This document shows positions 1 through 63,998 of a stretch of DNA of 64,000 nt, one piece after another; within the stretch, counting starts at the first letter, position 1; each line of letters begins with the position of its first letter. The notes under the pieces are model-generated. The model made no database searches and was not told the DNA's origin. It saw only the letters and a program-made list of their open reading frames with translations. This DNA is from a virus. Its lineage: Duplodnaviria; Caudoviricetes. Both the position numbers and the translations under genes were made by a program. The stretch is from the IMG/VR virus record IMGVR_UViG_3300007513_000003; one strand, written 5' to 3'.

Positions 1-1
1 G

Positions 2-20767: not shown

Positions 20768-20768
20768 A

Positions 20769-35318: not shown

Positions 35319-36358
35319 TGTATAACTCTTTCTATTTCATTATTTGTCATATAAGGACAATTGGGTATTGTTAGACTAGTTTGTTGTAAACTTAAACTAT
35401 TATTATATTCTTTTATATTAATATTGAACAGTTTTTCTTGTATAGGTAAAATACTATAATGTATTTGTGTTAATATACCATTAGATTTAAGATGTTTTAT
35501 TAATTTATCTCTGCTTTCGCACTTAATTACAAATTTACTATAGGTACAATCTTCTTTATATACAGGAAGTTCATACTTGTTGCCTATTTCTGTGGTATAT
35601 AGTTTAGCAATATATCGTCTTTTATTTTTATGTTCTGTTAATAAATCTAACGTGTTATTTAATACCACAGATTCTGTGGTACTAATCATGCTATTCATTC
35701 CTAAAACTTCACTAGGAGTAGAATTGTTTATTTTTCCGTGTAATCTTCCTAGAGTTGCTAACTTAGCAAAGTTATCGCTATTAGTAACTAATGCGCCGCC
35801 GCTTCCTAATGTAGTACAGGGCTTGGTAGGACTAAAACTTAGCACACTAAACGCAGAATTACTTAATGGTGCTCCTAGACTTTGCGCCGCGTCTTCGACT
35901 AGTAATAAGTTATTATCATTACAAAACGTTTCAACTAGTTTATTTGCGGGGCTTCCCCATAATGTAACATATAATAATACCTTTGTGTTGTTAGTGATTT
36001 TTTCTTTTGCTTTAGTTAAATCTAGATGATAATCATCCCCAACATCTACAAACACGGGTTTTAGTCCCGCAAGTAAAATGCTAGATGCTGTTGCAATAAA
36101 CGTATAAGCAGGAACAATTACTTCGCTATTGCTAGGTAAATTTAGATTGCGTAAACCTTGTACAAGGGCGTCTGTACAACTATGGAACAATGTTGTATTT
36201 TTTGTATTAATTAAAAAAGATATTTTATTTTCGACTTGTTTAGTTATATCTCCACCCTGACATACTCCGGTAGACAAAACTGAATCTATATCTTGCTTAA
36301 CATTAGACCCTATTTCATTCCAAAGTCTATCAAGATTAAATACTTTTACATCGTCCAT
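35300..36358 (-). CDS. DegT/DnrJ/EryC1/StrS PLP-dependent sugar aminotransferase
   Basis: SCTDAL, TFIATA, EDAAQS.G, SFSPTK (Schiff-base Lys), G.GGA. Confidence 0.92.
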   Translation of the reverse strand: MDDVKVFNLDRLWNEIGSNVKQDIDSVLSTGVCQGGDITKQVENKISFLINTKNTTLFHSCTDALVQGLRNLNLPSNSEVIVPAYTFIATASSILLAGLKPVFVDVGDDYHLDLTKAKEKITNNTKVLLYVTLWGSPANKLVETFCNDNNLLLVEDAAQSLGAPLSNSAFSVLSFSPTKPCTTLGSGGALVTNSDNFAKLATLGRLHGKINNSTPSEVLGMNSMISTTESVVLNNTLDLLTEHKNKRRYIAKLYTTEIGNKYELPVYKEDCTYSKFVIKCESRDKLIKHLKSNGILTQIHYSILPIQEKLFNINIKEYNNSLSLQQTSLTIPNCPYMTNNEIERVIQCLKEF

Positions 36359-36918
36359 TTAACTAGTTCAAAACTCTCCGCATAAGGATTTTTCGTAGAT
36401 GTCCCCCGTAATATAGCAAGAGCACGAGTTTGTTCTAATAATTCATCACTTACATCAATAAATGATGAGCACCAATCTAACTTATCTTGTATAGTATTCA
36501 TTCCAAAAAACACATTTGGATTAAATGATTTATTATTGTTTACATAAGCAGTAACTTCATATTGCAATATAATGCCAGAAAATTTTCTACTACTTGCTAA
36601 TGCTAGTTGATTTACAGTTTGATGGTCTTGATGGCTGTCGCCGTAATGAGGTATTAACAAATAATCGTAATTATTATTGTATAATATATCGTCTAGTCTA
36701 GAAATACTATCACTACTAAAGAAGGGTCTTTGGACATCGTCAAAAAATTCATATTCATATTTTAAATTAAAAGAATTAATGTCAACCGATTCTTCTTTTT
36801 CCTTATAAAAATAAACAATTTTAACAAAACTATTATTGCTAAGTTCGCTTAACAAAAATCCGCCGGCTCCTAACTCTACATCATCTGGGTGCGGACTAAG
36901 AGCTAAGATAGTTTTCAT
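36346..36918 (-). CDS. PIG-L/LmbE family deacetylase
   Basis: LALSPHPDDVELGAGG and DSHQDH motifs; ATGA overlap with the thyX stop. Confidence 0.88.
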   Translation of the reverse strand: MKTILALSPHPDDVELGAGGFLLSELSNNSFVKIVYFYKEKEESVDINSFNLKYEYEFFDDVQRPFFSSDSISRLDDILYNNNYDYLLIPHYGDSHQDHQTVNQLALASSRKFSGIILQYEVTAYVNNNKSFNPNVFFGMNTIQDKLDWCSSFIDVSDELLEQTRALAILRGTSTKNPYAESFELVKWTM

Positions 36919-37826
36919 AATTCCCACTTGTCTTTAAATTCAGAAAGTTCACGCTTGCTCATATCAAAGTGTTTCGCGAGAAGTTCTTCAGATCTATAAT
37001 CTTCTAAAATATCAAACCAGCGTTTACCTGACATAATACGTTTAATAAGACTTTTTTCCATGCGACTCACAGTAGTTGCGTTTTCAATATAATCTTCATA
37101 TGCCTCACACGCCAATGGAAACTTATTTACAATTAAACCATACATTGCTTTTGCTAGTTCTTGTATCTCCCATTGTGCATGGTAGTCTGCTCTTAGTTTT
37201 ACATAATGAAAAAAGTTGTTTAAATCTATTTTCCAATATAATTCTGTATAGTTGTTGAGAGGCAACACCGCACGGGCCAACTCTCTTGATAATCCTTGCC
37301 TAAGATCACTATCAATATTATAATTGTCATTGGGATTCTCCCCTAATAGAGACAAATAATCTTTATAGTTCTCTCTTCCAATTCGCTTAATAGTGTTATG
37401 GCACATAGTTTCTTCAATGGGAATTAACGTACCGTCCCTACCTTGCTTATTGATGACACTTTGTGGTTTAAGGTTTGCTTTATCAGGAACATAAAACTCA
37501 TCTGACATAATACTATATCTGCCAGAATATTCATTCAAGTTTGCCGTTCTGTGTCTTACGTGTTGCCTCATAACAAAAATGGGCATTTTCAAATGGAATT
37601 TAACCTCACACATCTCGAGCGGTGATGTGTGTCGGTGCTTAACTAGATATCTGATAAGTGCCCTGTCGTTACGAGTACCTTTGGTACCATTACCATATGA
37701 TACTCTTGCAGCTTGGACAATTGCTTCGTCTGAACCCATAGTGTCAACGAGTCCTACAAAACCATAGTCCAAATACTTTACATAGTTTTCATCTTTTTCA
37801 AAATTAATGTCTGAAATTTTTGTCAT
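36915..37826 (-). CDS. thyX: flavin-dependent thymidylate synthase
   Basis: AARVSYG, HTSPLE, RQHVRHRTANLNEYSGRY (RHRx7S), LARAVLP, HAQWEI. Confidence 0.95.
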   Translation of the reverse strand: MTKISDINFEKDENYVKYLDYGFVGLVDTMGSDEAIVQAARVSYGNGTKGTRNDRALIRYLVKHRHTSPLEMCEVKFHLKMPIFVMRQHVRHRTANLNEYSGRYSIMSDEFYVPDKANLKPQSVINKQGRDGTLIPIEETMCHNTIKRIGRENYKDYLSLLGENPNDNYNIDSDLRQGLSRELARAVLPLNNYTELYWKIDLNNFFHYVKLRADYHAQWEIQELAKAMYGLIVNKFPLACEAYEDYIENATTVSRMEKSLIKRIMSGKRWFDILEDYRSEELLAKHFDMSKRELSEFKDKWEL

Positions 37827-40271: not shown

Positions 40272-41555
40272 TTATTCGAATAATCTCTCAAATTGTGTTA
40301 AAGTATTGTCATTGGAAGAACTGTAAACCCAAATTGGCTCAATAAAACAATCTTTCATATGCTCTTTATTGCCGCCTTCTTCATTTTTTGGTCTCTGTTT
40401 CATTCGCATACCAATAACTTCTTGTAACGGCATCCCAACACTAGCCATAAAGTCTGTCATTGGATCACAAACATAATGTCTTTTGTTTTTAATATTGGCA
40501 TCTATTATATTTACTGCTATAACACCTGTTTGCGGATTAATTAGATTACTAACATTTTCTAATGTCACAAATAAAAAGTCTTTAAGCCAACTGTCAAACT
40601 CTTTATACTTAAACCAACTTTGTGTTTCCTCTTTAATGCCCTCTGCGTAACGCTCTGTATTATAATATGGCGGACTAGTAAATGCTAAATCATAGTTTAG
40701 TTTGGGGAAGTCTTTTATATCTTCAGCAGGCGCATTGAAAATGGTTACTGTTTTTGCACCTGTGTAGGTAAACCATTCTAATCCATTACAGGCATTAAAC
40801 TGCATCAACTGTCCATCGTTGTTAAAAATATGCTTGTCATAAAACTTACATTGTTCCATATATGCTTTATAAACATCAGGATTTGGATCACACCCTACAT
40901 AAACTTCCGCATTACTTGCCCAAAAGCCTGCTAATCTATCTCCCCACCCACAACTAGTATCCAAAACTGTTTTAGCATTAAATCTGTTATAAATGTATTT
41001 TGCTACAGTTGGTTTAAATTGGGTAGCAACATAAGCACCGAGTCTGAATGCTTCTCTGTATTTGCTTTCATCTACAAACTTTACAACACCATCACGCCAA
41101 AATGTCCAGTTAAGGGATTTTAATGCTTCTTTACTGCTCCATATATCTAATGGACTATTGTGTGACCAGCCACCACATTTTAGTCTGTTCTGTTGCTGAA
41201 AATAATTGCTAATGTCATTATAATAATGATTAATGTCTATAACGTCTTTACAATAGTCTTGGCAGGAATATTTGTAATCATTAAATTTATCTGTGATGCT
41301 TGTAGTGTAACCATATAATAGTTTGTTATGGTCCATTCCTTTAAGTTTTTTAAACTTTTCTATTACATCGTTTTCAGTTATATCTTGAAATGGAAATGGA
41401 ATGTTATTTTCTGTGATATAATGAGCGAGTGCTTCTATTGCTTCTTTCTTTTCGTAGTGCTCTTTAAACTCCTGCCATTCACTCGTAGAAAAAACAGGCA
41501 ACCCTGAAGGAGTTGCCTGATTCTCTAGGGCTTTTAGTATCTCCAGATTTACCAT
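40272..41555 (-). CDS. DNA amino-methyltransferase (m4C/m6A type)
   Basis: VLDTSCGWGDRL SAM motif and FTSPPY catalytic motif. Confidence 0.75.
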   Translation of the reverse strand: MVNLEILKALENQATPSGLPVFSTSEWQEFKEHYEKKEAIEALAHYITENNIPFPFQDITENDVIEKFKKLKGMDHNKLLYGYTTSITDKFNDYKYSCQDYCKDVIDINHYYNDISNYFQQQNRLKCGGWSHNSPLDIWSSKEALKSLNWTFWRDGVVKFVDESKYREAFRLGAYVATQFKPTVAKYIYNRFNAKTVLDTSCGWGDRLAGFWASNAEVYVGCDPNPDVYKAYMEQCKFYDKHIFNNDGQLMQFNACNGLEWFTYTGAKTVTIFNAPAEDIKDFPKLNYDLAFTSPPYYNTERYAEGIKEETQSWFKYKEFDSWLKDFLFVTLENVSNLINPQTGVIAVNIIDANIKNKRHYVCDPMTDFMASVGMPLQEVIGMRMKQRPKNEEGGNKEHMKDCFIEPIWVYSSSNDNTLTQFERLFE

Positions 41556-43636
41556 ATACCCTTAACCGCCGCCATTAGACGAGCGTTATTATCGCCTTGC
41601 ACATGGTTAACATCGTCCGTATACTTAAGGCTCAACTCAAAGTTACTGTTCTTAGAAACTTTTTCCTCGTATGACATAGTATAATCAATGTGCCGGCCAT
41701 TTGGCTCCATGTCTGCAATAAAGTCTGAAAATTGCAATCCACCTTGCTCAATGCGTAGTGGTTGTGCGATTTTAAGTTTTAACTTCTTGTAAGACATGTT
41801 AGCACCAAAACCCATAGCATGAAAGTCTTCTACGTCTTTGACGTAACCATAACTGCCGTTTGCTGTACCAAATGCATAAGTGGCATTAGCACTAAAGTTC
41901 CATTCACCAATGCTTTTCTTACGGCTAATATTAATATAACGAGTGTTAGGATTATTAATATGCATCAGGCTCTGTCCAGGTGACCAACCCAAAAGGCTGT
42001 TATCCATACCAATTGCGACATCAACTTCTCCGTAACGCAAACCCACGACGGCATTGTCAATCTCACCATATTCGTCTGCTTTAGTAGCACCAAACGTTAG
42101 AGCAGTATTGCCATTAAAATCAAACACAGGAACCATATTAATGTCACTAAAGGACATGATTTTGCTGTTATCTACAAAACTATTTTGCATATTTAATAGT
42201 TGATCCTGCACAAAACTTAACTGCCAAAAATTCGGCCCGCCTTGCATCACTTCAGCAAACCTGAATCGATGAAACCCGCCGCCAGTATCTTGCTCTTCTG
42301 TCTCGTCGTCGCTAGATGTCGACACAGCCGCAGGTGCAGGAGAAAGTAACGTTCCGAAGGAACCGTCTTCATACACAATAATCCAATCCATGCGGCCGTC
42401 GTTGTTAGCATGAGTGGGAAACAACGCGCCTTTGGATCCTGCCTTCGGCACGTTTGCAAAGATAGGAGTGCCAAGTTGTCGGAATGTTCCATTTCCGTTG
42501 TTTAACCAGATCCCTCCGTGTTGTGAACCAACATTGCCTCCATAATTAAAAAAATGGTTAATAAAAAGGTCGTTTCTACCGTCGCCGTTTAGGTCAACCA
42601 GCATCGGCGCTTGGCCCTTTGTGTGTGGGACAACACCATTTAGACCAAATTGCTGTTTTAAACTCACACCGCCTGGGCCTGTAGCAAAAACACGAATCCA
42701 ACTATTTGTGGCACATACGTCACCGCATTCGTCATGCACAATGATGTCGCGGCCGTTGTTATAGACGGCCCTCAGTCCTGCTACGCCGGGAATCGTATCT
42801 GGATATATTTGCATCAATGAGAATGATTTACCCCCATTGTTCTTATACACGTTAATAGCGCCACGCCTTGCTGACACACCATCCAACGCAATAGTTGAGT
42901 GATCATCCATGTAGCCTCCCGAGGAACGAGAGTCCATATCTCCGGAAATAAGTTCAGGATACCCGTCACCGTCCAGATCCATAAGTGTTCCTGCAAAAGC
43001 CTGGTTCATCATCCTTATTTGTCCGAGGTCACTGATCTCCCCGTTTACGTTCATTCCTCTTGCGCCAGGATTGAAGCCAAGATAAACCACCGTACCACCA
43101 GAGAAGCCAACAATATCTAAACGCCCGTCTTTATTGACATCTCCTATTGCTGAACCGTGCCAATGAAAACTAGGGCCAGGGGCCGCATTAATGCCGTTAT
43201 AGATTAAAGCAGGACGTAGGTCTCCACCCCAACCATTTCCTAGCGCAATAGGCCCTTGGGCAAAATAATTTCCAGTCCATTCGCTTACTGTCGAAGCAGA
43301 GGGAACACCCCCGGCTCTCGTCGGACTATAAGATCCGTCTGGATTACTGAGAAACACAAAAGGTGGAACACTCTTAGTCCAGCCCATCGGACAGCCTTGA
43401 TTACAGTAAACGCCATGGGCCGCTGGAAAAACCATCACATCAGTTTTTCCATCACCGTTCCAATCTCTTGCAACGGCATTCCCGCTATCCGCAAAGTGCT
43501 CAAGCCACGGGACGGTTCCGTGACCTGCTTTGAAACTATACGGTCCCTCTAATGCATCTGCTGTACTATGGTAACCAATTACCAAATGGTAACCAATTAC
43601 CAAAGCCATTAGAGCGACCACCTTTATTATCTTCAT
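41549..43636 (-). CDS. FG-GAP/VCBS repeat protein with signal peptide and C-terminal beta-barrel-like domain
   Basis: AAGGAG RBS, ATG 43636; DWNGDGKTD, DVNKDGRLD, DLDGDGYPE, DLNGDGRND, NNDGRMD repeats; amphipathic C-terminus ending in W. Confidence 0.75.
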   Translation of the reverse strand: MKIIKVVALMALVIGYHLVIGYHSTADALEGPYSFKAGHGTVPWLEHFADSGNAVARDWNGDGKTDVMVFPAAHGVYCNQGCPMGWTKSVPPFVFLSNPDGSYSPTRAGGVPSASTVSEWTGNYFAQGPIALGNGWGGDLRPALIYNGINAAPGPSFHWHGSAIGDVNKDGRLDIVGFSGGTVVYLGFNPGARGMNVNGEISDLGQIRMMNQAFAGTLMDLDGDGYPELISGDMDSRSSGGYMDDHSTIALDGVSARRGAINVYKNNGGKSFSLMQIYPDTIPGVAGLRAVYNNGRDIIVHDECGDVCATNSWIRVFATGPGGVSLKQQFGLNGVVPHTKGQAPMLVDLNGDGRNDLFINHFFNYGGNVGSQHGGIWLNNGNGTFRQLGTPIFANVPKAGSKGALFPTHANNDGRMDWIIVYEDGSFGTLLSPAPAAVSTSSDDETEEQDTGGGFHRFRFAEVMQGGPNFWQLSFVQDQLLNMQNSFVDNSKIMSFSDINMVPVFDFNGNTALTFGATKADEYGEIDNAVVGLRYGEVDVAIGMDNSLLGWSPGQSLMHINNPNTRYINISRKKSIGEWNFSANATYAFGTANGSYGYVKDVEDFHAMGFGANMSYKKLKLKIAQPLRIEQGGLQFSDFIADMEPNGRHIDYTMSYEEKVSKNSNFELSLKYTDDVNHVQGDNNARLMAAVKGIW
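43568..43603. repeat. perfect 18-bp tandem duplication (LVIGYH x2) in the signal peptide
   Basis: ATGGTAACCAATTACCAA x2. Confidence 0.9.
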
Positions 43637-43646
43637 TCCTATCTCC

Positions 43647-44945
43647 TTAACTGTAAGATGTTTCATAGTATGCATGAGCACCAAACGGTGGTGTCGGTGC
43701 TCCCTCTAAATTGTGAGTATGAATAATCCAGCATACGTCACAATACTGTTCATCGCCCCAAGAACCCCACGGATAACCATCCGTGAACATAACAAGTTTC
43801 TTAGGTTCGATTGCGTTTTCCTTTAGGTATTCATATACTGCTTCAAAACTTGTACCGCCACCGCCAACAATTTCATACTCGTTTATTTCGAAGAGATTGT
43901 CAGCAGTGAAATCTTTGACGCTGTATATGTCAGTATCAAAGCAAAACACCTTGATATTGAATGTAGTGTAGGCATCCATAATGCCTTTGATTTCTGACAA
44001 GAAGTCTCGAACCATATCTTCACTGATACTGCCGCTTACGTCGATACCTATTACAATATCGATCGTATCATCAGGCATCATACCAGGCAACATCACGCCA
44101 GTATGCCAGGCCTTTCGATTGGGTTTCATCCAGGAAAAGTCGCTTTTAATAGTGCTCTTAATTTGGACGTCCAACAGATCTCGCCAATTCATCTTAGGCT
44201 CTGTGAGTTCCCTGAGCATACGTTTGACGCCTGCCGGCACATTACCAGCACCAGCAGTCTGAGCCGCTGACATGATTGCTTCTTTCATCTCATCACGGAT
44301 TTCTTTTCTTTCCTTTTCCGAAAGTACCGGACGCTTGCCGCTTTCATTACCATCTTCGGAATCACCAGATCCGTCTTCGCTATCTCCATCCTGATCAAGA
44401 TGGTCATCCAGTACACGATTTAATAGATCGTCAATATCGATCTTTTCAGCGTTCTCATACAGATCGTCATATACTTCTTCATATGACCAATCATCGTATT
44501 TTCGGTCGTATACGATAGGAACTACGTCAATCGGCTCACCGATTCTGTATCTGATCAAATCACCATTAACGCAATAATCTGCGGCGATGTTTGACAACTG
44601 CGGATCTCGGTCGTTTCTACGACCAATGTGATCGTATACAACATGAAGAACTTCGTGTCCAAACAGAAATTCCATATTTTTAGATGACAGCATTTTGCAG
44701 AATTCAGTATTGTAGTAGAACCTGCGGCCATCTGTGGCGGCAGTAGGACACCATGCGTCAGCGTTTACAAGGGTTAAGCGAGTAGCCAAATTACCAAAAA
44801 ACGGTTCTTTGAGCAACAAGCCAATTCTTGCTGTAGTAAGGGCTTCGCGAATCTCTTTGTCTAGATCCGGATCTGTTTCAAACCCGACCTTAAGGTTGGG
44901 ATTATTCTTCAGTTTTTTGTCAGCGGTAGTAGAATTATCGGACAT
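43647..44945 (-). CDS. VWA domain protein with N-terminal HExxH metallopeptidase-like domain (DUF2201 type)
   Basis: TAATDGRR, GHEVLHVV, NIAADY, DVSGSIS MIDAS, GGGT, FTDGY. Confidence 0.88.
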   Translation of the reverse strand: MSDNSTTADKKLKNNPNLKVGFETDPDLDKEIREALTTARIGLLLKEPFFGNLATRLTLVNADAWCPTAATDGRRFYYNTEFCKMLSSKNMEFLFGHEVLHVVYDHIGRRNDRDPQLSNIAADYCVNGDLIRYRIGEPIDVVPIVYDRKYDDWSYEEVYDDLYENAEKIDIDDLLNRVLDDHLDQDGDSEDGSGDSEDGNESGKRPVLSEKERKEIRDEMKEAIMSAAQTAGAGNVPAGVKRMLRELTEPKMNWRDLLDVQIKSTIKSDFSWMKPNRKAWHTGVMLPGMMPDDTIDIVIGIDVSGSISEDMVRDFLSEIKGIMDAYTTFNIKVFCFDTDIYSVKDFTADNLFEINEYEIVGGGGTSFEAVYEYLKENAIEPKKLVMFTDGYPWGSWGDEQYCDVCWIIHTHNLEGAPTPPFGAHAYYETSYS

Positions 44946-44978
44946 TTTTGTACTCGAGTTTTTACTTTCTATACTAAT

Positions 44979-45032
44979 ATTTTAGCATTTTTCGGGCGAT
45001 TTGTCACGAAAAATGGTGCTCTAAGTGCTTGA
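44979..45032 (-). promoter_or_regulatory. sigma70-type promoter with upstream IHF-consensus box
   Basis: AATCAAGCACTTA, 14 bp, GTGACA, 17 bp, TAAAAT. Confidence 0.65.
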
Positions 45033-45043
45033 TTTAAATGAGT

Positions 45044-45083
45044 CCCCCTGGAGTTATTCCAGCATTGCGCTGGCTCCAGGGGG
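45044..45083. terminator. long GC-rich stem-loop after the AAA ATPase gene
   Basis: CCCCCTGGAG/CTCCAGGGGG outer stem plus CCAGC/GCTGG inner stem; no clear U-tract. Confidence 0.5.
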
Positions 45084-45098
45084 TTCCCAAGTACTCTG

Positions 45099-46223
45099 TC
45101 AGCCCTCCATCGCTGAGATCACATACTTGCCGAAGCGTTTATGAAACTCGTCGAACGACTTGAGTTTGCCCGGCACTAGCGGGAGGTTATAGTTAGTGAG
45201 CGCCATCTTAGCACCCATTACCGTAACTTCTGTAAGGAAGTTATCCATCATAAAGCGGAAGAAGTTATCGCACATTTCATGCCACTCTTTGCCCGGATTG
45301 GCTTTCTTTGACTTCTTAAAAGCATCACGCAACTCGTAGCACATGGCAATCGTCAGTGAGTACATCGCTGACACTTCCTTTACCGTAAGGCTTTTCACCT
45401 TCCCTTCCAAAATGTCGGTTGGGTTAGGCAATTTGCCAGAATGTTTACGATGGGCGTTGAACTTGATCGCCATACCTTCGCCTACAGTACCGGCAACGAG
45501 ATCCGAAACTTCGCTTTCAGTCATTTCAGGATCGCCATCTTCATCCTGAAGCAATTCACTCACGAACACCCAGGATCTGGGAGTAGCAAAGGACCGCTCA
45601 TTTGAGCCCGGATCAAAGTTATAAAGGTCGTTTTTGGCGAATGTAAGGTAACCAAGAACGTCACGATGTATTTGATTTTCGATCGCCCAATCCTGCCAGG
45701 TCTCAAAATCAGCCGCCACTTCAACATGAACGAAGCGATTAGCCAACGGTGCTGGCATACGATAAGTGACACCACGGTCAGTCTCGCGGTTACCAGCCGC
45801 CACAATAACGACATTATCGGGCAGGTTGTAAGTACCAATTCTGCGGTTAAGCACCAACTGGTAAGCGGCCGCCTGAGTAGCCATGGGAGCAGAGTTCATC
45901 TCGTCCAAAAACAGGACGACGACATCATACTGGCTAGCCAATTCTTCTGAAGGAAGATCAACTGGCTGAGCCCATGACATATTGTTTTCTGTCTGGTTGT
46001 AGTAAGGAATACCACGGAGATCAGTAGGCTCCATAAGAGCCATACGCAGGTCCAACATGAGACCATTGACGTCATCGGCCAACTGACTCACGAGATCAGA
46101 CTTGCCAACTCCGGGAGGTCCCCAAAGGAATACGGGTCGCTTACGAAGCATCGCGCGACGAATCGCCTTCTTGGCCTCCTTCAGGGTATTAGTGCGAACT
46201 TCGCTTGTTTGATTTTTGCTCAT
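45099..46223 (-). CDS. MoxR-like AAA+ ATPase
   Basis: GPPGVGKS Walker A, LFLDE Walker B, AAGNR, PLANRF; ATG 46223 with AGGAG RBS. Confidence 0.9.
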   Translation of the reverse strand: MSKNQTSEVRTNTLKEAKKAIRRAMLRKRPVFLWGPPGVGKSDLVSQLADDVNGLMLDLRMALMEPTDLRGIPYYNQTENNMSWAQPVDLPSEELASQYDVVVLFLDEMNSAPMATQAAAYQLVLNRRIGTYNLPDNVVIVAAGNRETDRGVTYRMPAPLANRFVHVEVAADFETWQDWAIENQIHRDVLGYLTFAKNDLYNFDPGSNERSFATPRSWVFVSELLQDEDGDPEMTESEVSDLVAGTVGEGMAIKFNAHRKHSGKLPNPTDILEGKVKSLTVKEVSAMYSLTIAMCYELRDAFKKSKKANPGKEWHEMCDNFFRFMMDNFLTEVTVMGAKMALTNYNLPLVPGKLKSFDEFHKRFGKYVISAMEG

Positions 46224-46243
46224 TGTACTTGGGTCTCCTTGAG

Positions 46244-46606
46244 TTATCGTCTGAGGTATACGCAACCATGCTCGGTGATGACACTCTCACCACAGTCATC
46301 GCTGAAGATGTTGCCACGAACTCCGTTCTTGACAGGCGCTTTCCACGAGCCCTTAAGAATGTCGCCGTTGTTCATATCAACAAAACTGTGGACAGACTGG
46401 CTTCGGTCACGCAACACTTCATTGCCGTTGTCGTCGTAATCGCGACTGACTTTGATAACCTTCGCATAGCGATTACCAAAATTGACAGTGATGTAGTCTG
46501 ACGGAGAATGAGTAAATTTCATGCGCTCAAAATACTCATCTTGCAGTCTCTGGACCAAATCGCAATATTCATAGATTCGGTCATTCATTTCACGGGTGTT
46601 TTTCAT
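46244..46606 (-). CDS. hypothetical phage early protein
   Basis: GNRYAKV...VHSFVD..NGDILK.SWKAP..GVRGNI. Confidence 0.7.
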   Translation of the reverse strand: MKNTREMNDRIYEYCDLVQRLQDEYFERMKFTHSPSDYITVNFGNRYAKVIKVSRDYDDNGNEVLRDRSQSVHSFVDMNNGDILKGSWKAPVKNGVRGNIFSDDCGESVITEHGCVYLRR

Positions 46607-56950: not shown

Positions 56951-57337
56951 TTATTTATATTCTTTTTTCCCGTTTTGTATGTCTCGCATTTGTATATTAA
57001 TATTGCTACCTACGACGTCTTCATCATATGTTTCCATAGCAATTTGTCTACATAAGTCTTGAAACCATTGATCCACCACTTCTTCGTCTGTTTCACCAGT
57101 TAATCCGTGACCACGTAACATTTTAACGAATGGGTCGTTCCAATCTAATTCAAACGCACCATTAAGTGGGTTCTCACTATTAATTTCTACATCCACAATG
57201 GTAAACCATGGTTCACCCTTTTTTGTCGCTTTCTCCTTTGGCGTCAATTTTTTCTTTGGTTCTTTAACTGGTTCTGGGGTTGGCTCAGAACCAAATGCAT
57301 TTTTTAGTTTTTCAAATATATCCATTATGTTCCCCAT
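56951..57337 (-). CDS. hypothetical phage protein
   Basis: EKAT..GEPW...G.FELDWN..F...L...G..GETDEEVVDQWF. Confidence 0.65.
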   Translation of the reverse strand: MGNIMDIFEKLKNAFGSEPTPEPVKEPKKKLTPKEKATKKGEPWFTIVDVEINSENPLNGAFELDWNDPFVKMLRGHGLTGETDEEVVDQWFQDLCRQIAMETYDEDVVGSNINIQMRDIQNGKKEYK

Positions 57338-58209
57338 GCATTACCAAACAGATCAGAGTGTAGTCTTGGACTATAACGTAATCCATGTTTCATAACTGCT
57401 TCTGCGACAATGCGTGTATTCTTTTTATAATCATCATATAAACCACCTACAGGCATACAATAAACAGGACAGTCAACGCCTGCTTCTTTATATACTGCAA
57501 TGGCTTTTTCTACTTCATCCATGCTTTCTTCGCTATCAATAACAAATTTAAAATACATGTCTGAGAAAGGCATTTTATAATATGCGGCCGCCACATCAGG
57601 CTTAATTGCTTTTCCCCATGGTTCGCCGCTTGCTGATAGTTTAGGAGAGCACGACCAGGTAACATATGGTCTGATAGGAGTCCTGTAATTAGCAAAATCA
57701 CCGGTCCAATTTCGCCAGTCGTAAAACCATTCAAAAATTTTGTCAGTTAAATTTCTAGTAGTATTAGTCTCGAATGTAACATTTTTTAAATCCTGCATAC
57801 GATCATGTGCAAATAAATCAGGATATATTTTTTGCCACATCATAGGCTCACCGCCCGTAATAACTAAATGTATGTCTTGCCCATTGGGCATTATCCAACT
57901 GCCATTGGGCGTTTTTGCCAATAGATCATCTACTAATTTGTCTAAGTCTACATCTGTTGCTAAATATTTAAATCGTGGATCCCAACTTGCATAACTGTCA
58001 CATCCTGTGCTAACTAATGGCAAATCATCAAAGTGTGTATAATCAGCGGCAAAAACGCCGAGTCGCTCTTTGCTTAACTCACCGCGTGGCATTCCAAAAC
58101 CTTGGCATTTTAAATTACAACCAAACAGTCGCAAGAAAACAGACGGCACGCCTGTAAACTTACCCTCTCCTTGTAAACTATAAAATATTTCTGTATATCT
58201 AATCTTCAT
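57325..58209 (-). CDS. queE: 7-carboxy-7-deazaguanine synthase (radical SAM)
   Basis: EIFYSLQGEG..TG.P.VFLR.FGCN..C (insert) CDS, ITGGEP, FETN, SPKL, R.H..L.G. Confidence 0.92.
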   Translation of the reverse strand: MKIRYTEIFYSLQGEGKFTGVPSVFLRLFGCNLKCQGFGMPRGELSKERLGVFAADYTHFDDLPLVSTGCDSYASWDPRFKYLATDVDLDKLVDDLLAKTPNGSWIMPNGQDIHLVITGGEPMMWQKIYPDLFAHDRMQDLKNVTFETNTTRNLTDKIFEWFYDWRNWTGDFANYRTPIRPYVTWSCSPKLSASGEPWGKAIKPDVAAAYYKMPFSDMYFKFVIDSEESMDEVEKAIAVYKEAGVDCPVYCMPVGGLYDDYKKNTRIVAEAVMKHGLRYSPRLHSDLFGNAWGT

Positions 58210-58534
58210 CGGGTTTATTTCCTTGCCATTTATCGCCAAATAATTTATGTAGTGGTATTGCTTGATGTTCTTCCTTAGTCATACCCCAACTAGGCCCCTT
58301 TAACATTCGCTGTATTTTAATTTGCATATCGTCGTATTCTTCTTTCCATTCTTGCTTTTCTTCTTCTAATCTTTTTGGAAGTTTATCTAATATTATAACA
58401 ATTTCTTTAAGATTGTCAAGTGTATTACGTTCAGTTCGTGATATGTATACACTGTGTCGAGGTATTTTAAAATTATCGAAGCATTTGTCTATTAGGTCTT
58501 TTGCCTTATTAATGTCATCTTGCATAACTCTCAA
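58199..58534 (-). CDS. hypothetical protein
   Basis: 111-aa helical ORF, overlaps on both sides. Confidence 0.55.
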   Translation of the reverse strand: MRVMQDDINKAKDLIDKCFDNFKIPRHSVYISRTERNTLDNLKEIVIILDKLPKRLEEEKQEWKEEYDDMQIKIQRMLKGPSWGMTKEEHQAIPLHKLFGDKWQGNKPDED

Positions 58535-59717
58535 TGCCTCCTTCCCTGTGTATGTCTAACGTTAAGCAATGCAATCCACCATCCCAAAAGAATCTATGCC
58601 TAAACGGAGTTACTATAGGCTCTACATTATGCTTTCTAAACCATTTAAATAATTCTTTATTTTCGGTTAGGCACAGTACAGTTTCAGGATTTACCATCAA
58701 TACATTAACGTCCCAAATTGTTTCTTCACAAAATCCTACCCACTCGCTAAACCATTTATCTACGTAGTCAATAAGTTCGTCGTTGTGTTCTTCGCCTGGA
58801 ATCCACCATTTTCCTTGTACTTTTTCTCTAACTTCTAAGAATGGTGACATATTAGACCATTGGGCGTCTGGCAAGTAGAATACGTCCCAATTTGGAAAAT
58901 ACTTTTTAAACTGTAGTGCTTCGCCATTTGATATAAATGCGCCGGGTTTTATTGGTGCGTATATACCATCCGAATGCCCGTCGTTAAAAGCAGTTATAAT
59001 ATTATAGTTGTCTTTAAAATGATTTTTAAAGTATTTGTAAACATGCGGCCGCAATCCATCTAATATTATTGTATCCCCAAGCCGCACAATATTTGGTCCC
59101 TCATTCAAATAATCGTCTTTCCACGGGAATTCAATAATATTTGCGCCTTGTTCTTTTAATTCTTTGAATAATGGTTCATAAAATATAGCAAGGGCCCGGC
59201 TGGCACCTCCCTGTGGATATAATGGATTAATAGTATTTATACAAGCCGGGTTTACTTCTGGCATGCTGTACGGTCTTAACTTATAAAAAGTTTCTCCTAC
59301 TATGATTTGATCGTCCCGTGGAAATAATGGCGGTCGGGTGAGTGCGCCTGGATCTGCATATATATCGTAGTTTGCTAAAAAACTTTCGACACCTTTCCTA
59401 TCAATTAATCTTGGAAAATAATTTAATACTTCATCAATAATAATGTTTAAGTTTTCATCAACACAAGCTCCACCAACTTTGTATATATTATATACTTGAT
59501 CAAAATCAAAAAGTTTCGGGCGTTTAACAGTTACGCCATAACTTTCTAATACTTCTTTAATGTTCTCTAAATCTTCTATGGTTTCTTCAGTAATTTGTTG
59601 CAGAATATTTTTTACTTTAATATTATCAACGTAGTCAAAGAACTCCGGACGATAGCAATCGCCTAACCAACATTCTTTTAGTGGTTGGAATCCTGTGTTA
59701 CAATTGATTACACCCAT
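58515..59717 (-). CDS. amidinotransferase (AGAT/StrB1, pentein superfamily)
   Basis: FQPLKEC.LG, PRD, EGP, HSDG, C-terminal DGGLHC.TLD..R catalytic Cys motif. Confidence 0.85.
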   Translation of the reverse strand: MGVINCNTGFQPLKECWLGDCYRPEFFDYVDNIKVKNILQQITEETIEDLENIKEVLESYGVTVKRPKLFDFDQVYNIYKVGGACVDENLNIIIDEVLNYFPRLIDRKGVESFLANYDIYADPGALTRPPLFPRDDQIIVGETFYKLRPYSMPEVNPACINTINPLYPQGGASRALAIFYEPLFKELKEQGANIIEFPWKDDYLNEGPNIVRLGDTIILDGLRPHVYKYFKNHFKDNYNIITAFNDGHSDGIYAPIKPGAFISNGEALQFKKYFPNWDVFYLPDAQWSNMSPFLEVREKVQGKWWIPGEEHNDELIDYVDKWFSEWVGFCEETIWDVNVLMVNPETVLCLTENKELFKWFRKHNVEPIVTPFRHRFFWDGGLHCLTLDIHREGGIESYAR

Positions 59718-60184
59718 CCATTAAACCCTGCTTCGGGGTTATGATAGGTTGAACTGTTCTTGTCATTTTCTCTTGCTTCTACACTAATAACCCATGCTCT
59801 GCCACCTGTTCTTTCGCGTAACCATCCATCAGCATAATTACAGATACGCATAGCAGTGCCTTCCATACCTGGCCCTTCTTCTTGTACAATTAATTTACAT
59901 ACACCCGCATCGTGTAGCATTTGGAATGTTTCCATATATGGGTCATCGTGATCAATAACAAACGTATGGTCATAATTCTCTTCTAACCATCTCTTTAGTT
60001 CTTTCAAGTCACTATAATCAACAAGAAATCCTTCTTTTGTCATAGTGTGTGCGCCAAACGTAAAATGAAAACTACGGCTATAGCCGTGTATCATAGCGCA
60101 GTTTCCGTCATGCTTGTGTTGTCTATGAGCACACGGAAAGTTATAAAATGTTTTTGTAGATGTAAATTCAGGTACTCCGCTCAT
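59708..60184 (-). CDS. queD: 6-carboxytetrahydropterin synthase
   Basis: AHRQ..H.G.C..IHGY, VDY..LK, DH, E......V.V.E..KNS. Confidence 0.9.
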   Translation of the reverse strand: MSGVPEFTSTKTFYNFPCAHRQHKHDGNCAMIHGYSRSFHFTFGAHTMTKEGFLVDYSDLKELKRWLEENYDHTFVIDHDDPYMETFQMLHDAGVCKLIVQEEGPGMEGTAMRICNYADGWLRERTGGRAWVISVEARENDKNSSTYHNPEAGFNGWV

Positions 60185-60326: not shown

Positions 60327-60869
60327 TTACCAATTTTTATCACTCCACCAGTTTTCCCACGGAAAAACAATCCACGAGGGATCTTCAATTTTATTAATCA
60401 CTAATGAGGTGTAAGAGATTTCTGTAAATCTACTCTCCTCATTATTAACTAGCGAAGCAAAACGAACATTAGAGCCTACAACTTTGTCCCAAGACTTAAC
60501 ACCCGGTATCGGCGCATTCATCCAATCATTTACAATCCAATCAAATGTAGCACCAGAATCATTTATATCATCAACAACAAGTATATTTTTAGGTTCGATT
60601 ACTTCTTCATGACTAAAACTAGTTTTAGTTATGCCTGACGCGTCTGCCGCCATTTCTAAACTAGATTGTAGATTGTGTCCATCTCGTAATCTAACATCTA
60701 ATGTATGTAACGGTGTTTCTAAATAATGACTCAACATTGTAGCAGGAATTAGTCCTCCCCTTGTAATACCTACAATGTATTCAGGCCGCCAATTACCAGC
60801 ATAAATCTGTTGAGTAATATCTAAAACTTGCGACTTAATGTCTTGTGTATTTAGATAGATCATTTTCAT
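60327..60869 (-). CDS. type I phosphoribosyltransferase (Gpt/Hpt-like)
   Basis: VGITRGGLIPA..LSH, LVVDDINDSGAT PRPP motif, WIVFPWE. Confidence 0.88.
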   Translation of the reverse strand: MKMIYLNTQDIKSQVLDITQQIYAGNWRPEYIVGITRGGLIPATMLSHYLETPLHTLDVRLRDGHNLQSSLEMAADASGITKTSFSHEEVIEPKNILVVDDINDSGATFDWIVNDWMNAPIPGVKSWDKVVGSNVRFASLVNNEESRFTEISYTSLVINKIEDPSWIVFPWENWWSDKNW

Positions 60870-60886: not shown

Positions 60887-61573
60887 CTATCGCGGAGCAA
60901 ATTCTTGCTGAAGTTTGATATTGTCAAAGAACTCTTTTTTAGTAGAAGCATCTTCTTTAAATGATCCTTTAAGCACTGTTGTTTGTGTTAGACTAGAGTG
61001 TGCCATGACACCCCTATTTTCTACGCAACCATGCGTTGCTTGTACGTAAACACCTACATTACTAGAACCTGTTGCTTTAATAATTTCATGTGCTATGTCG
61101 TTGGCAAGTTCTTCTTGTAGTGTTCCCCGTCTGGCACACCATTGTGCTATACGTGTATATTTGGATAATCCTATAAGTGTGTCTGCCGCGATAATGCCAA
61201 TATATGCAACTCCGGTTACTGGTTGAAAATGATGGGAGCAAACGCTACGTATTTCACTTCTTACAACAAGCATGCCTTCGTAACCATCCTCTACATGATT
61301 AGGAAATGCGGTTGCATTGGGCATGTTATCAAAACGGCCGCTCATAAGTTCTCTTATATACATTTTTGCTAAACGACGCGGCGTGTCAATAGAGTTAGGA
61401 TCACTATGCCTATCAATAAGCAGAGTGTCCAATACTCCTTCAAACTTTTCCGTTAGTTCATCAATGAGCAGATCTTTTTCTTCTTCTTCGATAAATTCTG
61501 ATATATTGTCTCCTGCCCAAAAACGTCCACCGTGTTCTAGCATTCTGTTTCTAATTGTTTTACTAATGCTCAT
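60887..61573 (-). CDS. folE: GTP cyclohydrolase I
   Basis: DTPRRLAK, SVCSHHF, GLSKY.R, LQE, HGCVENRG; GGAG RBS before ATG 61573. Confidence 0.95.
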   Translation of the reverse strand: MSISKTIRNRMLEHGGRFWAGDNISEFIEEEEKDLLIDELTEKFEGVLDTLLIDRHSDPNSIDTPRRLAKMYIRELMSGRFDNMPNATAFPNHVEDGYEGMLVVRSEIRSVCSHHFQPVTGVAYIGIIAADTLIGLSKYTRIAQWCARRGTLQEELANDIAHEIIKATGSSNVGVYVQATHGCVENRGVMAHSSLTQTTVLKGSFKEDASTKKEFFDNIKLQQEFAPR

Positions 61574-61594
61574 ATATTTCTCCAAGTACTATAT

Positions 61595-61623
61595 ATTATA
61601 AAGATTATTTAGGCAAATGTCAA
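61595..61623 (-). promoter_or_regulatory. consensus sigma70 promoter for folE-PRTase-queD-amidinotransferase-queE
   Basis: TTGACA, 17 bp, TATAAT. Confidence 0.8.
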
Positions 61624-61630
61624 TTATTTG

Positions 61631-62830
61631 TTAAAATTTAGACTCCGCAACATGGTCTCTATATCTATTTCCATCACGGCGCCACTGTTCTCCGTTGCCC
61701 TCCATAATATCACATATGCGATCAATAGTACCATTCGTCCAATCGGATATTCTTCCCATGTTAAAACTTGGCATTCTTAGAGCAGTATCAATTTTTTCAA
61801 TAGCAGAGTGCATACTCCAAGGAATATACAAACGATCTGCATCATTAGCAAAAGTTTCAGGGAAACTGCGATATGCAGGATATACTACATTACACCCTAG
61901 TGTATCCGCTTCACTTACAGTATTGCTTACCCAATCTTGTAGCGCACAATTGAATAATACCTTACTGTCGTTAACGATATTATAATAATCATTCTTATTT
62001 AGGTCAGTATAAATTTTTAGAACTCCTTCTGCTTGTAATTTCAATGCACGATCTAAATATTTTTGATTGTTACTGCGTAAAGGCCCGCCGCTTAGAACAG
62101 CGAACTCAACATCAGTTATACTATCTACATATTGATTTTGGTGCTTTAGATGGCCAGTTACTGTTTCAACAATATCCATAAAGAAGTCAGGTTGTTTTTC
62201 TTGATCAAATCTTGCCGCAAATACAACACGATTAGATCTTTCACTCCACTTCTTTACCTTATTTCCTACTCTTTCAAGAACTTCACTTTTGCCAAAACTC
62301 AATCCTGATATGTTGTATATAGGAGCAGTCCAGTTAGCAATACGCATATGGGCAACCATTTCTTCATTAGTAGCCAATACTGTAGCAAACTCATTAACCA
62401 TTTGCTCATACAAACTCATCCACTTGGACATACCCCATACATGGACAAAGTCATCAGGATCTACCGCCTGGGCAAGACAACGGACATAAACTTTGGGGCG
62501 TTGATTTTCGGGAATCTGGTTCATAATATACGGAAGTGATTCTATACCAGGTTGAAACATATCCTCAAAGAAGATAGCATCCTCCCCTGTCACAGTTCCA
62601 TCACGCATCATTTGGACTAGGTTCATCATTTGGCTCATACCAAAATAACTGCGTCCATGTGCGTCTAACACTTGTCCTACAGATATTGCTTTAGTATTGT
62701 CAATAGTCTCACCGGGCACAACTATATAGTCTATGCCTCTGCGTTTAAATACACGCTCACTCCATTCTTGTAATTGTAATGTATATCTTCCTTCATAAGG
62801 CTCAAGTCCCATGTATATTAATTTACGCAT
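61631..62830 (-). CDS. GT-B fold glycosyltransferase
   Basis: FAARFDQEKQPDFF and DWVSNTVSEA (D/E-x7-E) donor-binding motif, YPAYRSFPE. Confidence 0.75.
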   Translation of the reverse strand: MRKLIYMGLEPYEGRYTLQLQEWSERVFKRRGIDYIVVPGETIDNTKAISVGQVLDAHGRSYFGMSQMMNLVQMMRDGTVTGEDAIFFEDMFQPGIESLPYIMNQIPENQRPKVYVRCLAQAVDPDDFVHVWGMSKWMSLYEQMVNEFATVLATNEEMVAHMRIANWTAPIYNISGLSFGKSEVLERVGNKVKKWSERSNRVVFAARFDQEKQPDFFMDIVETVTGHLKHQNQYVDSITDVEFAVLSGGPLRSNNQKYLDRALKLQAEGVLKIYTDLNKNDYYNIVNDSKVLFNCALQDWVSNTVSEADTLGCNVVYPAYRSFPETFANDADRLYIPWSMHSAIEKIDTALRMPSFNMGRISDWTNGTIDRICDIMEGNGEQWRRDGNRYRDHVAESKF

Positions 62831-62919: not shown

Positions 62920-63068
62920 CTAAACAGTAACTCCATCTATGTTCGTTGTCTTAAGACCAGTTACATACCATTCAGGTGCAGGTCTTGCTTTGTTCCAGGC
63001 GGCAAATCTAGATTTTTCGCCCAAATAAAAATTTCTATTTGCATCTCTGCAAGTATAAACCTATTCAT
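62920..63068 (-). pseudogene. out-of-frame remnant resembling a pyrimidine-dimer glycosylase-like family gene
   Basis: MNRFIL start in one frame; NRNFYLGEKSRFAAWNKARPAPEWY in another. Confidence 0.35.
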
Positions 63069-63478
63069 TGATAAAGCCTTTCTATATCAACCTCATCACA
63101 AAATTCTCCATATTGTATTTCTACAATATGCAATGGTGTATAAGAAGGGTTCATGATTTGATGCCATTCTCCGGCTGGCACGTGGTAAGATTCATGCTTA
63201 TTTAATATAATAGTTCTAGCATCACGTTCTATAAAATTATGCCGATTGCTAAGATCTCCTTTGCTACAAGATTCAGTATAGTTTGGTGCTAATATAAGTC
63301 TTGCAACACCAGATTCTACAATCCAAAACTCATTTCTATGTTCATGACGTTGGAAACTCATACAGGAGTTAGGATTTACGACTAGCTCCTTAACCTTCAT
63401 ACTTTTGAAGTTAGCAAGAACATCATAAACTCCCCAATCTCGTTGGATATCAAATTTATTGTTGTCTTTGTTCTGCAT
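63065..63478 (-). CDS. cupin, mannose-6-phosphate isomerase type II C-terminal-like
   Basis: RDWG.Y.VL...VKELVV.P...SFQRH.HR.E.W.V..G ... EIQYG....E.DIER; ATG 63478 preferred. Confidence 0.8.
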   Translation of the reverse strand: MQNKDNNKFDIQRDWGVYDVLANFKSMKVKELVVNPNSCMSFQRHEHRNEFWIVESGVARLILAPNYTESCSKGDLSNRHNFIERDARTIILNKHESYHVPAGEWHQIMNPSYTPLHIVEIQYGEFCDEVDIERLYQ

Positions 63479-63677
63479 TGCTTTTTTTATAAGGTTTTCT
63501 AAAATGTGGATACCCTGGCCAATATCTTGCCTTGCCAGTCTCCTTCCAGCGTAAAAAGTCGCTATATGGACTCTTTTCCTTATATAAATGTGCCTCATCA
63601 AAGACTCGTCCAAATTCTCGACAGAAGTCACGATATGCATCCAAATCATCAAAGATTTGTTTCACTGCTTTTTTCAT
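63456..63677 (-). CDS. hypothetical protein
   Basis: 73 aa; IFDDLDAYRDFCREFG..FDEAHLY. Confidence 0.6.
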   Translation of the reverse strand: MKKAVKQIFDDLDAYRDFCREFGRVFDEAHLYKEKSPYSDFLRWKETGKARYWPGYPHFRKPYKKSNAEQRQQ

Positions 63678-63698: not shown

Positions 63699-63998
63699 TT
63701 AGTTAATGTTTTTATAAGCGATTACAGGATAGACGCAATGGCATCCATTCTCGTCATCTTCGCTTACGTCTATTTGGACTTCTCTGCCTTTATAGCGTTC
63801 GTTGATTGCTAGGTAGAGATCGTCTGCTATCATTTCACAGGACTTGTAGTCTAATTGTAAAGTGCCTGTGGAATAAAGATTTTCCAACCAACGTTTAAAT
63901 TGAATAAATTCAATATCTCTGTCGTCGTGGAATACTTGTATAGTAACCTTAAAGTGGAATGTGTGGCGATGTGGATATCCGAGAAAGGATACATCATA
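63699..63998 (-). CDS. second T-fold (QueD/PTPS-like) protein, 5' truncated
   Basis: Frame open to the window edge: HRHTFHFKV...DRDIEFIQFKR...SCEMIA....V.V.EDDENG. Confidence 0.6.
   Translation of the reverse strand, partial: YDVSFLGYPHRHTFHFKVTIQVFHDDRDIEFIQFKRWLENLYSTGTLQLDYKSCEMIADDLYLAINERYKGREVQIDVSEDDENGCHCVYPVIAYKNIN

Follow-up and report, generated by a model that had tools for sequence, protein, structure and literature searches.

We analyzed a 64,000-nucleotide stretch of DNA (referred to as the window) from the IMG/VR virus record IMGVR_UViG_3300007513_000003 (Duplodnaviria; Caudoviricetes), focusing on an amidinotransferase-family gene close to its end. This gene, here called PEN (positions 58515 to 59717, minus strand; protein P0001), lies in a cluster of que genes for deazaguanine synthesis. 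The window is contained in a 112-kb record, G000; in the following, L-numbers denote individual loci, and G001, G002, G003, G005, and G006 are related records.

On the minus strand, the genes follow the order DpdL-like fragment, cupin, GT-B, folE, phosphoribosyltransferase (PRTase), queD, PEN, orf111, and queE (Table 1). The ATG of PEN overlaps the stop codon of queD by 10 nt, in the string ATGGGTGTAA, and its own stop codon overlaps the probable ATG (58525) of orf111. An earlier annotation made from the letters of the window (the sequence-only reading) had described this open reading frame (ORF), its PRD, HSDG, and GGLHC motifs, and the 10-nt overlap with queD, all of which we recovered; the motifs start at residues 133, 248, and 380. 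It had also placed PEN between queD and queE. The position is correct, with the difference that orf111 intervenes before queE. Judging by its conservation, PEN is certainly a genuine gene beyond chance: 341 protein clusters matched it at E ≤ 1e-3, and the nearest were 64 to 86% identical over the full length. PEN is probably cotranscribed with the cluster, from the promoter predicted before folE, and the true start of queE is probably an internal Met near position 58209. The orf111 product was unrelated to DUF6614 by hhalign (probability, 0.1), and it showed no relation to the small ORF of Synechococcus phage BUCT-ZZ01. A megablast search of the 9-kb region against cultured phages gave no match.

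Table 1. Coordinates of PEN, its motifs, the surrounding cluster, and the sugar-type genes in the window
Feature	Position	Strand	Remarks
PEN	58515-59717	-	ATG-started ORF, 400 aa; pentein amidinotransferase family
PRD motif, residues 133-135 of PEN	59313-59321	-	Aligned to AGAT "MPRD"; D135 corresponds to AGAT Asp170, guanidinium binding
HSDG motif, residues 248-251 of PEN	58965-58976	-	H248 corresponds to AGAT His303, D250 to AGAT Asp305
GGLHC motif, residues 380-384 of PEN	58566-58580	-	C384 corresponds to the AGAT nucleophile Cys407
Insertion of ~40 residues, residues 81-119 of PEN	59361-59477	-	Specific to the window's clade
QueE, 7-carboxy-7-deazaguanine synthase	57325-58239	-	phrog_2076, E = 3e-55; NCBIfam QueE N-terminal matches
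orf111, 111 aa	58199-58534	-	ORF; all close relatives have it following PEN or preceding queE
Sigma-70-like match inside orf111, upstream of queE	58392-58419	-	12/12, extended -10 TG; consensus match only
QueD-like 6-carboxytetrahydropterin synthase	59708-60184	-	PF01242, E = 1.2e-20; phrog_2389; CxxxHGY
HGPRT-like PRTase	60327-60869	-	PF00156
FolE, GTP cyclohydrolase I	60887-61585	-	PF01227, E = 1.8e-40
Sigma-70-like promoter match just upstream of folE	61595-61623	-	12/12 hexamer positions; consensus match only
GT-B-like glycosyltransferase GT399	61631-62830	-	Weak PF00534 match
Cupin / mannose-6-phosphate-isomerase-like	63065-63652	-	PF01050, PF07883
DpdL-type T-fold, 5' part missing	63699-63998	-	LGYPHRHTF motif
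Sugar-type cluster	34323-37826	-	NAD epimerase/dehydratase, DegT (35300-36358), PIG-L deacetylase, then ThyX

Searches with PEN against Pfam at E ≤ 10 returned nothing but a chance match to DUF1967, leaving PF02274 unmatched, and NCBIfam gave no match. In PHROGs, PEN matched only phrog_25854, the function of which is unannotated, and PF02274 is carried only by a neighboring ESM Atlas cluster and not by PEN. A phmmer search of the PDB retrieved amidinotransferases only (HsvA, with an E value of 8e-10, SxtG, StrB1, and AGAT). Likewise, a profile built from 83 homologues matched only AGAT, HsvA, SxtG, and StrB1, with E values from 1e-20 (AGAT) to 2e-13, and its alignment with AGAT spans most of the length. 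The AlphaFold2 (AF2) model of PEN (mean predicted local distance difference test score [pLDDT], 84.5; predicted template-modeling score, 0.88) gave the same picture. The seven best Foldseek matches were all amidinotransferases (E values of 5e-18 to 1e-16), and the VIA-align Z scores were 28.3 for SxtG, 28.2 for AGAT, 28.1 for StrB1, and 27.5 for HsvA, compared with 23.3 for arginine deiminase and 20 or less for PAD, DDAH, and ArgZ. With AGAT (1JDW), StrB1 (1BWD), SxtG (6U1R), and HsvA (5WPI), PEN shares the pentein fold (283 to 293 residues aligned at 20 to 23% identity) as well as the PRD, HxD, and GGxHC motifs, and it retains the Cys, the His, and the two Asp residues that bind the guanidinium group. 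Unlike these enzymes, PEN falls below every Pfam and NCBIfam threshold and belongs to a family that is almost purely viral. Based on its sequence and predicted fold, PEN is a divergent, phage-specific member of the AGAT/StrB1/SxtG/HsvA branch of the pentein superfamily, in agreement with the AGAT/StrB1-type assignment of the sequence-only reading.

Across the 83 homologues, R134, H248, D250, G380, G381, H383, and C384 were invariant, and D135 was at least 90% conserved. Beside the catalytic Cys, the family has invariant H374, R375, and D379 residues that AGAT lacks. The segment that replaces residues 322 to 359 of AGAT is about 30 residues longer in the PEN family and rich in Trp and Glu, with W277, W304, W305, W322, W326, and E332 invariant and E309, E310, and E331 nearly so. 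This segment and the additional invariant residues suggest that the PEN family has its own substrate pocket. The insertion at residues 81 to 119, helical in the AF2 model, is conserved across the six-member clade to which the window belongs; its columns are gapped in at least 80 to 100% of the other family members. Since the window's clade retains all columns with a conservation of 85% or more in the rest of the family, and differs mainly by this insertion, the chemistry of PEN is probably that of the family at large.

The family is large and its distribution is narrow. A relative of PEN was present on at least 573 IMG/VR contigs, and a profile search of 1.84 billion representatives (50% identity) yielded 1374 matches at E ≤ 1e-3 and 269 at E ≤ 1e-30. 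The ESM Atlas neighbors of PEN were 53 to 100% viral. Among 185,579 species genomes, 10 contigs carried a relative, all of them from metagenome-assembled genomes. Cultured phages nearly lack PEN: a partial relative is present in the cultured Synechococcus phage S-SCSM2R and weak ones in Campylobacter phages. The CheckV completeness of the contigs that carry PEN implies genomes of about 300 to 350 kb, and G000 carries a T4-type portal and baseplate. The PEN subfamily is thus almost restricted to uncultured, mostly marine, giant T4-like phages, some of which hold 2 to 4 tandem paralogues (including L063 and L085).

In S-SCSM2R, ORF266 is 38% identical to PEN over the C-terminal 145 residues. The amidinotransferases of Campylobacter phages vB_CjeM_WX1 and CP20 are weakly similar in sequence (21% identity), and their fold match to PEN is clear (E = 5e-17). 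ORF266 and ORF309 of S-SCSM2R and the Campylobacter genes are found with radical SAM, aminotransferase, Kds, and 2-oxoglutarate-oxygenase genes, not with que genes (PMC12801897), and we did not find QueD in S-SCSM2R. The Campylobacter phage amidinotransferase sits among multiple radical SAM genes; it was considered as a second que link and rejected, as these neighbors are not QueE.

The genes around PEN define the type of the deazaguanine pathway. DpdL, the proposed decarboxylase of 7-carboxy-7-deazaguanine, has the signature LxxxHRHxF (Cui et al. 2023, PMC10516641), which the LGYPHRHTF of the T-fold fragment in the window fits. The G000 record stops 179 nt past the end of the window and truncates this gene, and the fragment is 68 to 71% identical to full-length copies in relatives, which in turn match DpdL of Acidovorax phage ACP17 and Cellulophaga phage phiST. 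Homologues of the window PRTase occur in phiST (gp064) and in BUCT-ZZ01, there beside QueE. The DpdL-type 2'-deoxy-7-deazaguanine (dDG) system of phiST comprises FolE, QueD, QueE, DpdL, and DpdA3 (PMC10516641). FolE, QueD, QueE, a DpdL-signature gene, and the PRTase are shared with the window, whose cluster lacks QueC. Compared with phiST, which has no amidinotransferase, the window cluster adds GT-B and the cupin, and DpdA was not found in the 112-kb fragment. The published phiST-type pathway contains no pentein enzyme, and the term amidinotransferase appears there only in a citation on ArcS (PMC10516641). By its gene content, the encoded pathway is of the phiST type, in which FolE, QueD, QueE, and DpdL are predicted to lead to 7-deazaguanine.

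Neither QueC nor QueF was detected above the cutoff in G000 (112 kb), G001, G002, G003, G005, or G006. G001 is 329 kb long with terminal repeats and is 100% complete, and G002 is 95% complete; G000 is fragmentary, so that the absence there is weak by itself. A weak match to the QueF model in G006 is probably not QueF, as it lies within a stretch that tblastn assigned to FolE, which also has a T-fold. Since 7-deazaguanine has no side-chain amine and QueC and QueF were not found, these phages appear to encode no source of a preQ1-type acceptor. Close relatives L005 to L007 carry in their cluster a gene for a YhhQ/Vut_1 transporter, a family known for importing preQ0 and preQ1, and precursor import may occur in these phages.

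A Pfam-detectable TGT was absent from all six of these records. In G000, DpdA/TGT was not found with the Pfam model, a six-frame search for the motif DSGG[FL]Q, or tblastn with DpdA of BUCT-ZZ01; G000 ends 179 nt beyond DpdL, so this negative shows little, and the sequence past that end may include a DpdA3-like gene. The single weak DpdA match in G000 was rejected because it falls inside a giant structural ORF. Neither of two further candidates resembles DpdA: the 321-aa gene that adjoins DpdL in G002, and c15, a gene of close relatives that is a distant homologue of GT399.

We then compared the position of PEN across its family. In the close clade (66 to 80% identity; 12 loci, L003 to L007 and L015 to L021), the order is always queD, PEN, (x), orf111, queE. 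A positional link with que genes in related phages had been set beforehand as a test of the sequence-only reading, and all close relatives keep PEN between queD and queE. About 10 loci of distant members (30 to 37% identity) also lie in que clusters, with several gene orders, among them epimerase, PEN, DegT, FolE, QueD (L051 and L067); QueD, c1, c2, PEN, c3, QueE (L064 and L094), where c1 to c3 are partner genes described below; and PRT, cupin, PEN, c3, QueE (L065 and L075). A family-wide association with que genes was not observed, as a que-adjacent member was found in 5 of the 29 PEN lineages (clusters at 60% identity). By a binomial test, this corresponds to a P value of about 0.03 against a background of 6% and of 0.16 against 10%; both backgrounds are assumed, and the test is only indicative. 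In the family tree, a quick IQ-TREE version drawn with midpoint rooting, a long stem (1.49 substitutions per site) leads to the window's clade.

Relatives of 329 to 332 kb have a que cluster without PEN, and the distance between PEN and the que cluster is 196 kb in G001, 22 kb in G002, 64 kb in G003, and 25 kb in G005. Lone copies of PEN lie between core genes, such as terminase and UvsX or NrdAB-glutaredoxin and PAAR, and other copies stand beside radical SAM/SPASM genes. The cluster of G002 has the order radical SAM, DpdL, x, GT-B, epimerase, DegT, FolE, HIT, QueD, GT2-like, methyltransferase, x, QueE. Different tailoring-type genes thus occupy the gap between queD and queE in different phages, which indicates that this gap is a variable slot. 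Taken together, PEN looks like a movable accessory gene in the DpdL-type cluster and not like a step in deazaguanine synthesis.

These data bear directly on the acceptor that the sequence-only reading had put first, a preQ1-type aminomethyl group. PEN would then amidinate a 7-deazaguanine intermediate, as the base, the nucleotide, or within DNA, to form a guanidinomethyl-deazaguanine, which would be a new DNA base. The constant queD-queE location throughout the close clade, with the 10-nt overlap and a possible shared promoter, would fit such a role, and so would the repeated que adjacency, with varying gene order, in four or more parts of the family tree, and the YhhQ/Vut_1 transporter of L005 to L007, which could import a precursor. 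Against it, the product to which DpdL points is plain 7-deazaguanine, a base that lacks a side-chain amine (PMC10516641), and QueC and QueF were found neither in the 112-kb record nor in complete relatives. Moreover, the same que cluster occurs without PEN in G001 and G002, the active-site columns of PEN are the same as in members far from que genes, and the enrichment of que adjacency is weak. With a DpdL-type cluster, no QueC or QueF, and a movable gene that is que adjacent in 5 of 29 lineages, the preQ1-type acceptor is not supported, and we regard it as very unlikely.

PEN belongs to none of the families described for the deazaguanine pathways. ArcS, QueF-L, and Gat-QueC act on preQ0, for which the phage of the window has no biosynthetic gene. 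We found no homology of PEN to these enzymes and no Pfam, NCBIfam, or PHROG match to them, and the likeness goes no further than a cationic, nitrogen-rich group in a deazaguanine setting.

The most frequent neighbors of PEN are three small genes, c1, c2, and c3, one or more of which adjoin it in 18 of the 29 lineages. The c1 product (about 166 aa) matches DUF6875 and DUF1415 near the Pfam cutoff. The c2 product (about 143 aa) matches ATE_C (E = 2e-5 for the G000 copy, at the Pfam cutoff) and yeast ATE1 (E = 1e-4), and its model (core pLDDT above 85) resembles the aminoacyl-tRNA-dependent GNATs MprF, ATE1, FemX, L/F-transferase, and Sba18. The c3 product (about 110 aa) is DUF6614 (E = 3.5e-22). 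Profiles of c1 and c3 gave nothing significant in the PDB, and Pfam searches with further neighbors of PEN (k81, k80, k116, k52, and others) gave nothing usable. In G000, c2 and c1 lie side by side at 88425 to 89927 (L100, 5426 to 6928), outside the window and 83 kb from PEN, and encode an ATE_C-like GNAT of 235 aa and a DUF6875/DUF1415-like protein of 189 aa; c3 is absent from this record. The pair in G000 is located between a PDDEXK nuclease gene and the T4-type baseplate and portal genes. Among 23 larger PEN-bearing records, c2 was present in 14 and c1 in 15, including both near-complete genomes, and the c1/c2 pair is sometimes 65 to 90 kb from PEN.

AstA and AstB are an acyltransferase-plus-pentein pair of arginine catabolism. 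By a similar logic, the substrate of PEN could be an arginyl group that c2 has added, or PEN could be a guanidino hydrolase. Such a function would suit the frequency of c2, the commonest neighbor of the PEN family and one that co-occurs with it genome-wide, its matches to ATE_C and yeast ATE1, its fold, which is like that of aminoacyl-tRNA-dependent GNATs, and the handling of arginine by both families. It would also be compatible with the triad Asp and the carboxylate-binding residues of AGAT, which are not demonstrably kept in PEN. The structural comparison argues otherwise, as PEN is about 5 Z units nearer to the transferases than to any hydrolase, and the sequence agrees. The window's genome lacks c3 and has c1 and c2 at a distance of 83 kb from PEN, the E values of the c2 matches are marginal, and c1 and c2 may be just common genes of this phage lineage. 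We therefore judge this explanation unlikely.

A further possibility is that PEN works alone on host metabolites, as an HsvA-like enzyme that modifies polyamines or an AGAT-like arginine:glycine or arginine:lysine enzyme. Amidinated polyamines, for example, might aid the packing of a very large genome, and the position in the que operon would be accidental. The best single-sequence match in the PDB was indeed the polyamine amidinotransferase HsvA (E = 8e-10), and the conserved E309, E310, E331, and E332 together with six Trp residues would suit a cationic amine. PEN stands alone between core genes in many phages, and its relative in S-SCSM2R was detected in purified virions (PMC12801897). However, genes for polyamine synthesis were not seen in the vicinity of any PEN copy, c1 and c2 may be encoded at a distance in genomes whose PEN seems solitary (as in G000, G002, G005, and G006), and the tandem paralogues of L063 and L085 suggest several distinct substrates. 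We consider a host-metabolite function doubtful, if still worth keeping in mind.

Finally, we examined the association of PEN with sugar genes. Besides the order epimerase, PEN, DegT of L051 and L067, in L047 and L050 a nucleotidyltransferase gene and then an epimerase gene come after PEN. Nearby sugar genes are lacking in most of the family. In the window, the epimerase, DegT, and PIG-L genes (34.3 to 36.9 kb) are 22 kb from PEN, and GT-B and the cupin are 2 to 4 kb away. An amino sugar made by the DegT enzyme had been named as the second candidate acceptor by the sequence-only reading. A DegT gene does exist in the window, 22 kb from PEN, and another lineage has the order epimerase-PEN-DegT; an amino sugar may be the acceptor.

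Our preferred reading, to which we give a probability of about 40%, is that PEN is a working enzyme that carries out an accessory tailoring reaction and amidinates a cationic amine (an amino sugar or aminocyclitol-like compound, or an aminoacylated intermediate) that comes from other phage genes. It draws on the sugar-nucleotide genes that flank PEN in two other lineages, on the que clusters of this phage group, which are interleaved with sugar-tailoring genes, on the epimerase/DegT/PIG-L cluster of the window, and on the amidinotransferases of cultured phages, which sit with aminotransferase and radical SAM genes. Judging by the conserved residues, Asp135 and Asp250 would hold the guanidinium group of the amidino donor, presumed to be arginine. 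His248 would activate Cys384, which would attack the guanidinium group and form a covalent S-amidino (thiouronium) intermediate, and the amidino group would then be passed to a primary amine to give a guanidine. The acceptor might be a StrB1-like amino sugar or aminocyclitol compound, or an aminoacylated intermediate from the ATE-like transferase c2. A DpdL-type cluster without QueC and QueF would make no preQ1-type aminomethyl group, and PEN occupies the variable queD-queE slot, which holds glycosyltransferase and methyltransferase genes in relatives.

Several points weigh against this tailoring role. The column aligned to the triad residue Asp254 of AGAT (around residues 204 to 208 of PEN) is not conserved in the family profile, and AGAT residues 322 to 359, which include the arginine carboxylate-binding Arg322 and Ser354/355, remain unaligned between the two hidden Markov model domains. 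Arginine as the donor, and transfer over hydrolysis, are therefore assumptions. No sugar gene adjoins PEN in the window. In the window's clade, PEN is always within the que operon and overlaps queD, and que-adjacent copies arise at four or more separate places on the family tree; PEN may be linked to the deazaguanine product. In addition, most PEN-bearing records are fragments of 5 to 30%, which makes statements of absence weak.

If PEN is an accessory tailoring enzyme, the value of the finding lies in the protein family and not in a new DNA base. The family would represent a large phage-restricted clade with its own substrate-binding segment and no curated model, often accompanied by an aminoacyl-tRNA-transferase-like gene, and giant marine phages would seem to produce a guanidino compound of some kind. 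In DpdL-type clusters, the interval between queD and queE would be a slot for tailoring genes, which helps to predict uncultured phages with elaborated 7-deazaguanine DNA. The guanidino group could also end up on the phage DNA, either through an amidinated amino sugar that the conserved GT-B would attach to DNA containing 7-deazaguanine or through an amidinated, salvaged preQ1-type base. We think this improbable. If true, the product would be a hypermodified purine with a positive charge and a guanidino group, a type not yet described in any DNA. Such a guanidino-type hypermodification would add to the chemistries of phage DNA and affect the encounters of restriction and CRISPR systems with it.

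Other features of the que cluster were recorded along the way. GT399 is 62 to 70% identical in the que clusters of distant relatives, compared with 46 to 62% for their QueE and 26 to 39% for their QueD, and the closest relatives of the window have a very divergent GT399 homologue (about 20% identity) at the same position. GT399 travels with the que cluster. The PRTase in the que operon, with its homologue in the fully dDG-substituted phiST, hints at a base-to-nucleotide (pre-replicative) route for deazaguanine, a point not settled in the literature. In BUCT-ZZ01 (L014, 7141 to 12908), the cluster consists of QueE, PRTase, x, QueD, FolE, a GT-like gene, DpdA (DSGGLQ), and DpdL, all annotated as hypothetical except three. 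As a cultured cyanophage, BUCT-ZZ01 is a possible tractable model for the DpdL-type cluster.

Elsewhere in the window, nine paralogous radical SAM genes (339 to 480 aa) are located on the plus strand at 11931 to 22082 and 25450 to 26520, eight of them in uninterrupted tandem; several resemble the radical SAM/SPASM genes that adjoin the PEN family in other phages and DpdL in G002. Positions 1 to 4891 of the plus strand, continuing to G000:C1:74138, encode the C-terminal part of a 4949-aa ORF, presumably a giant structural or fiber protein. The minus-strand stretch from 41549 to 46265 encodes an FG-GAP repeat protein (711 aa), a DUF2201 metallopeptidase/VWA protein (432 aa), and a MoxR-like AAA ATPase (388 aa), and has a G+C content of 0.46 versus about 0.35.

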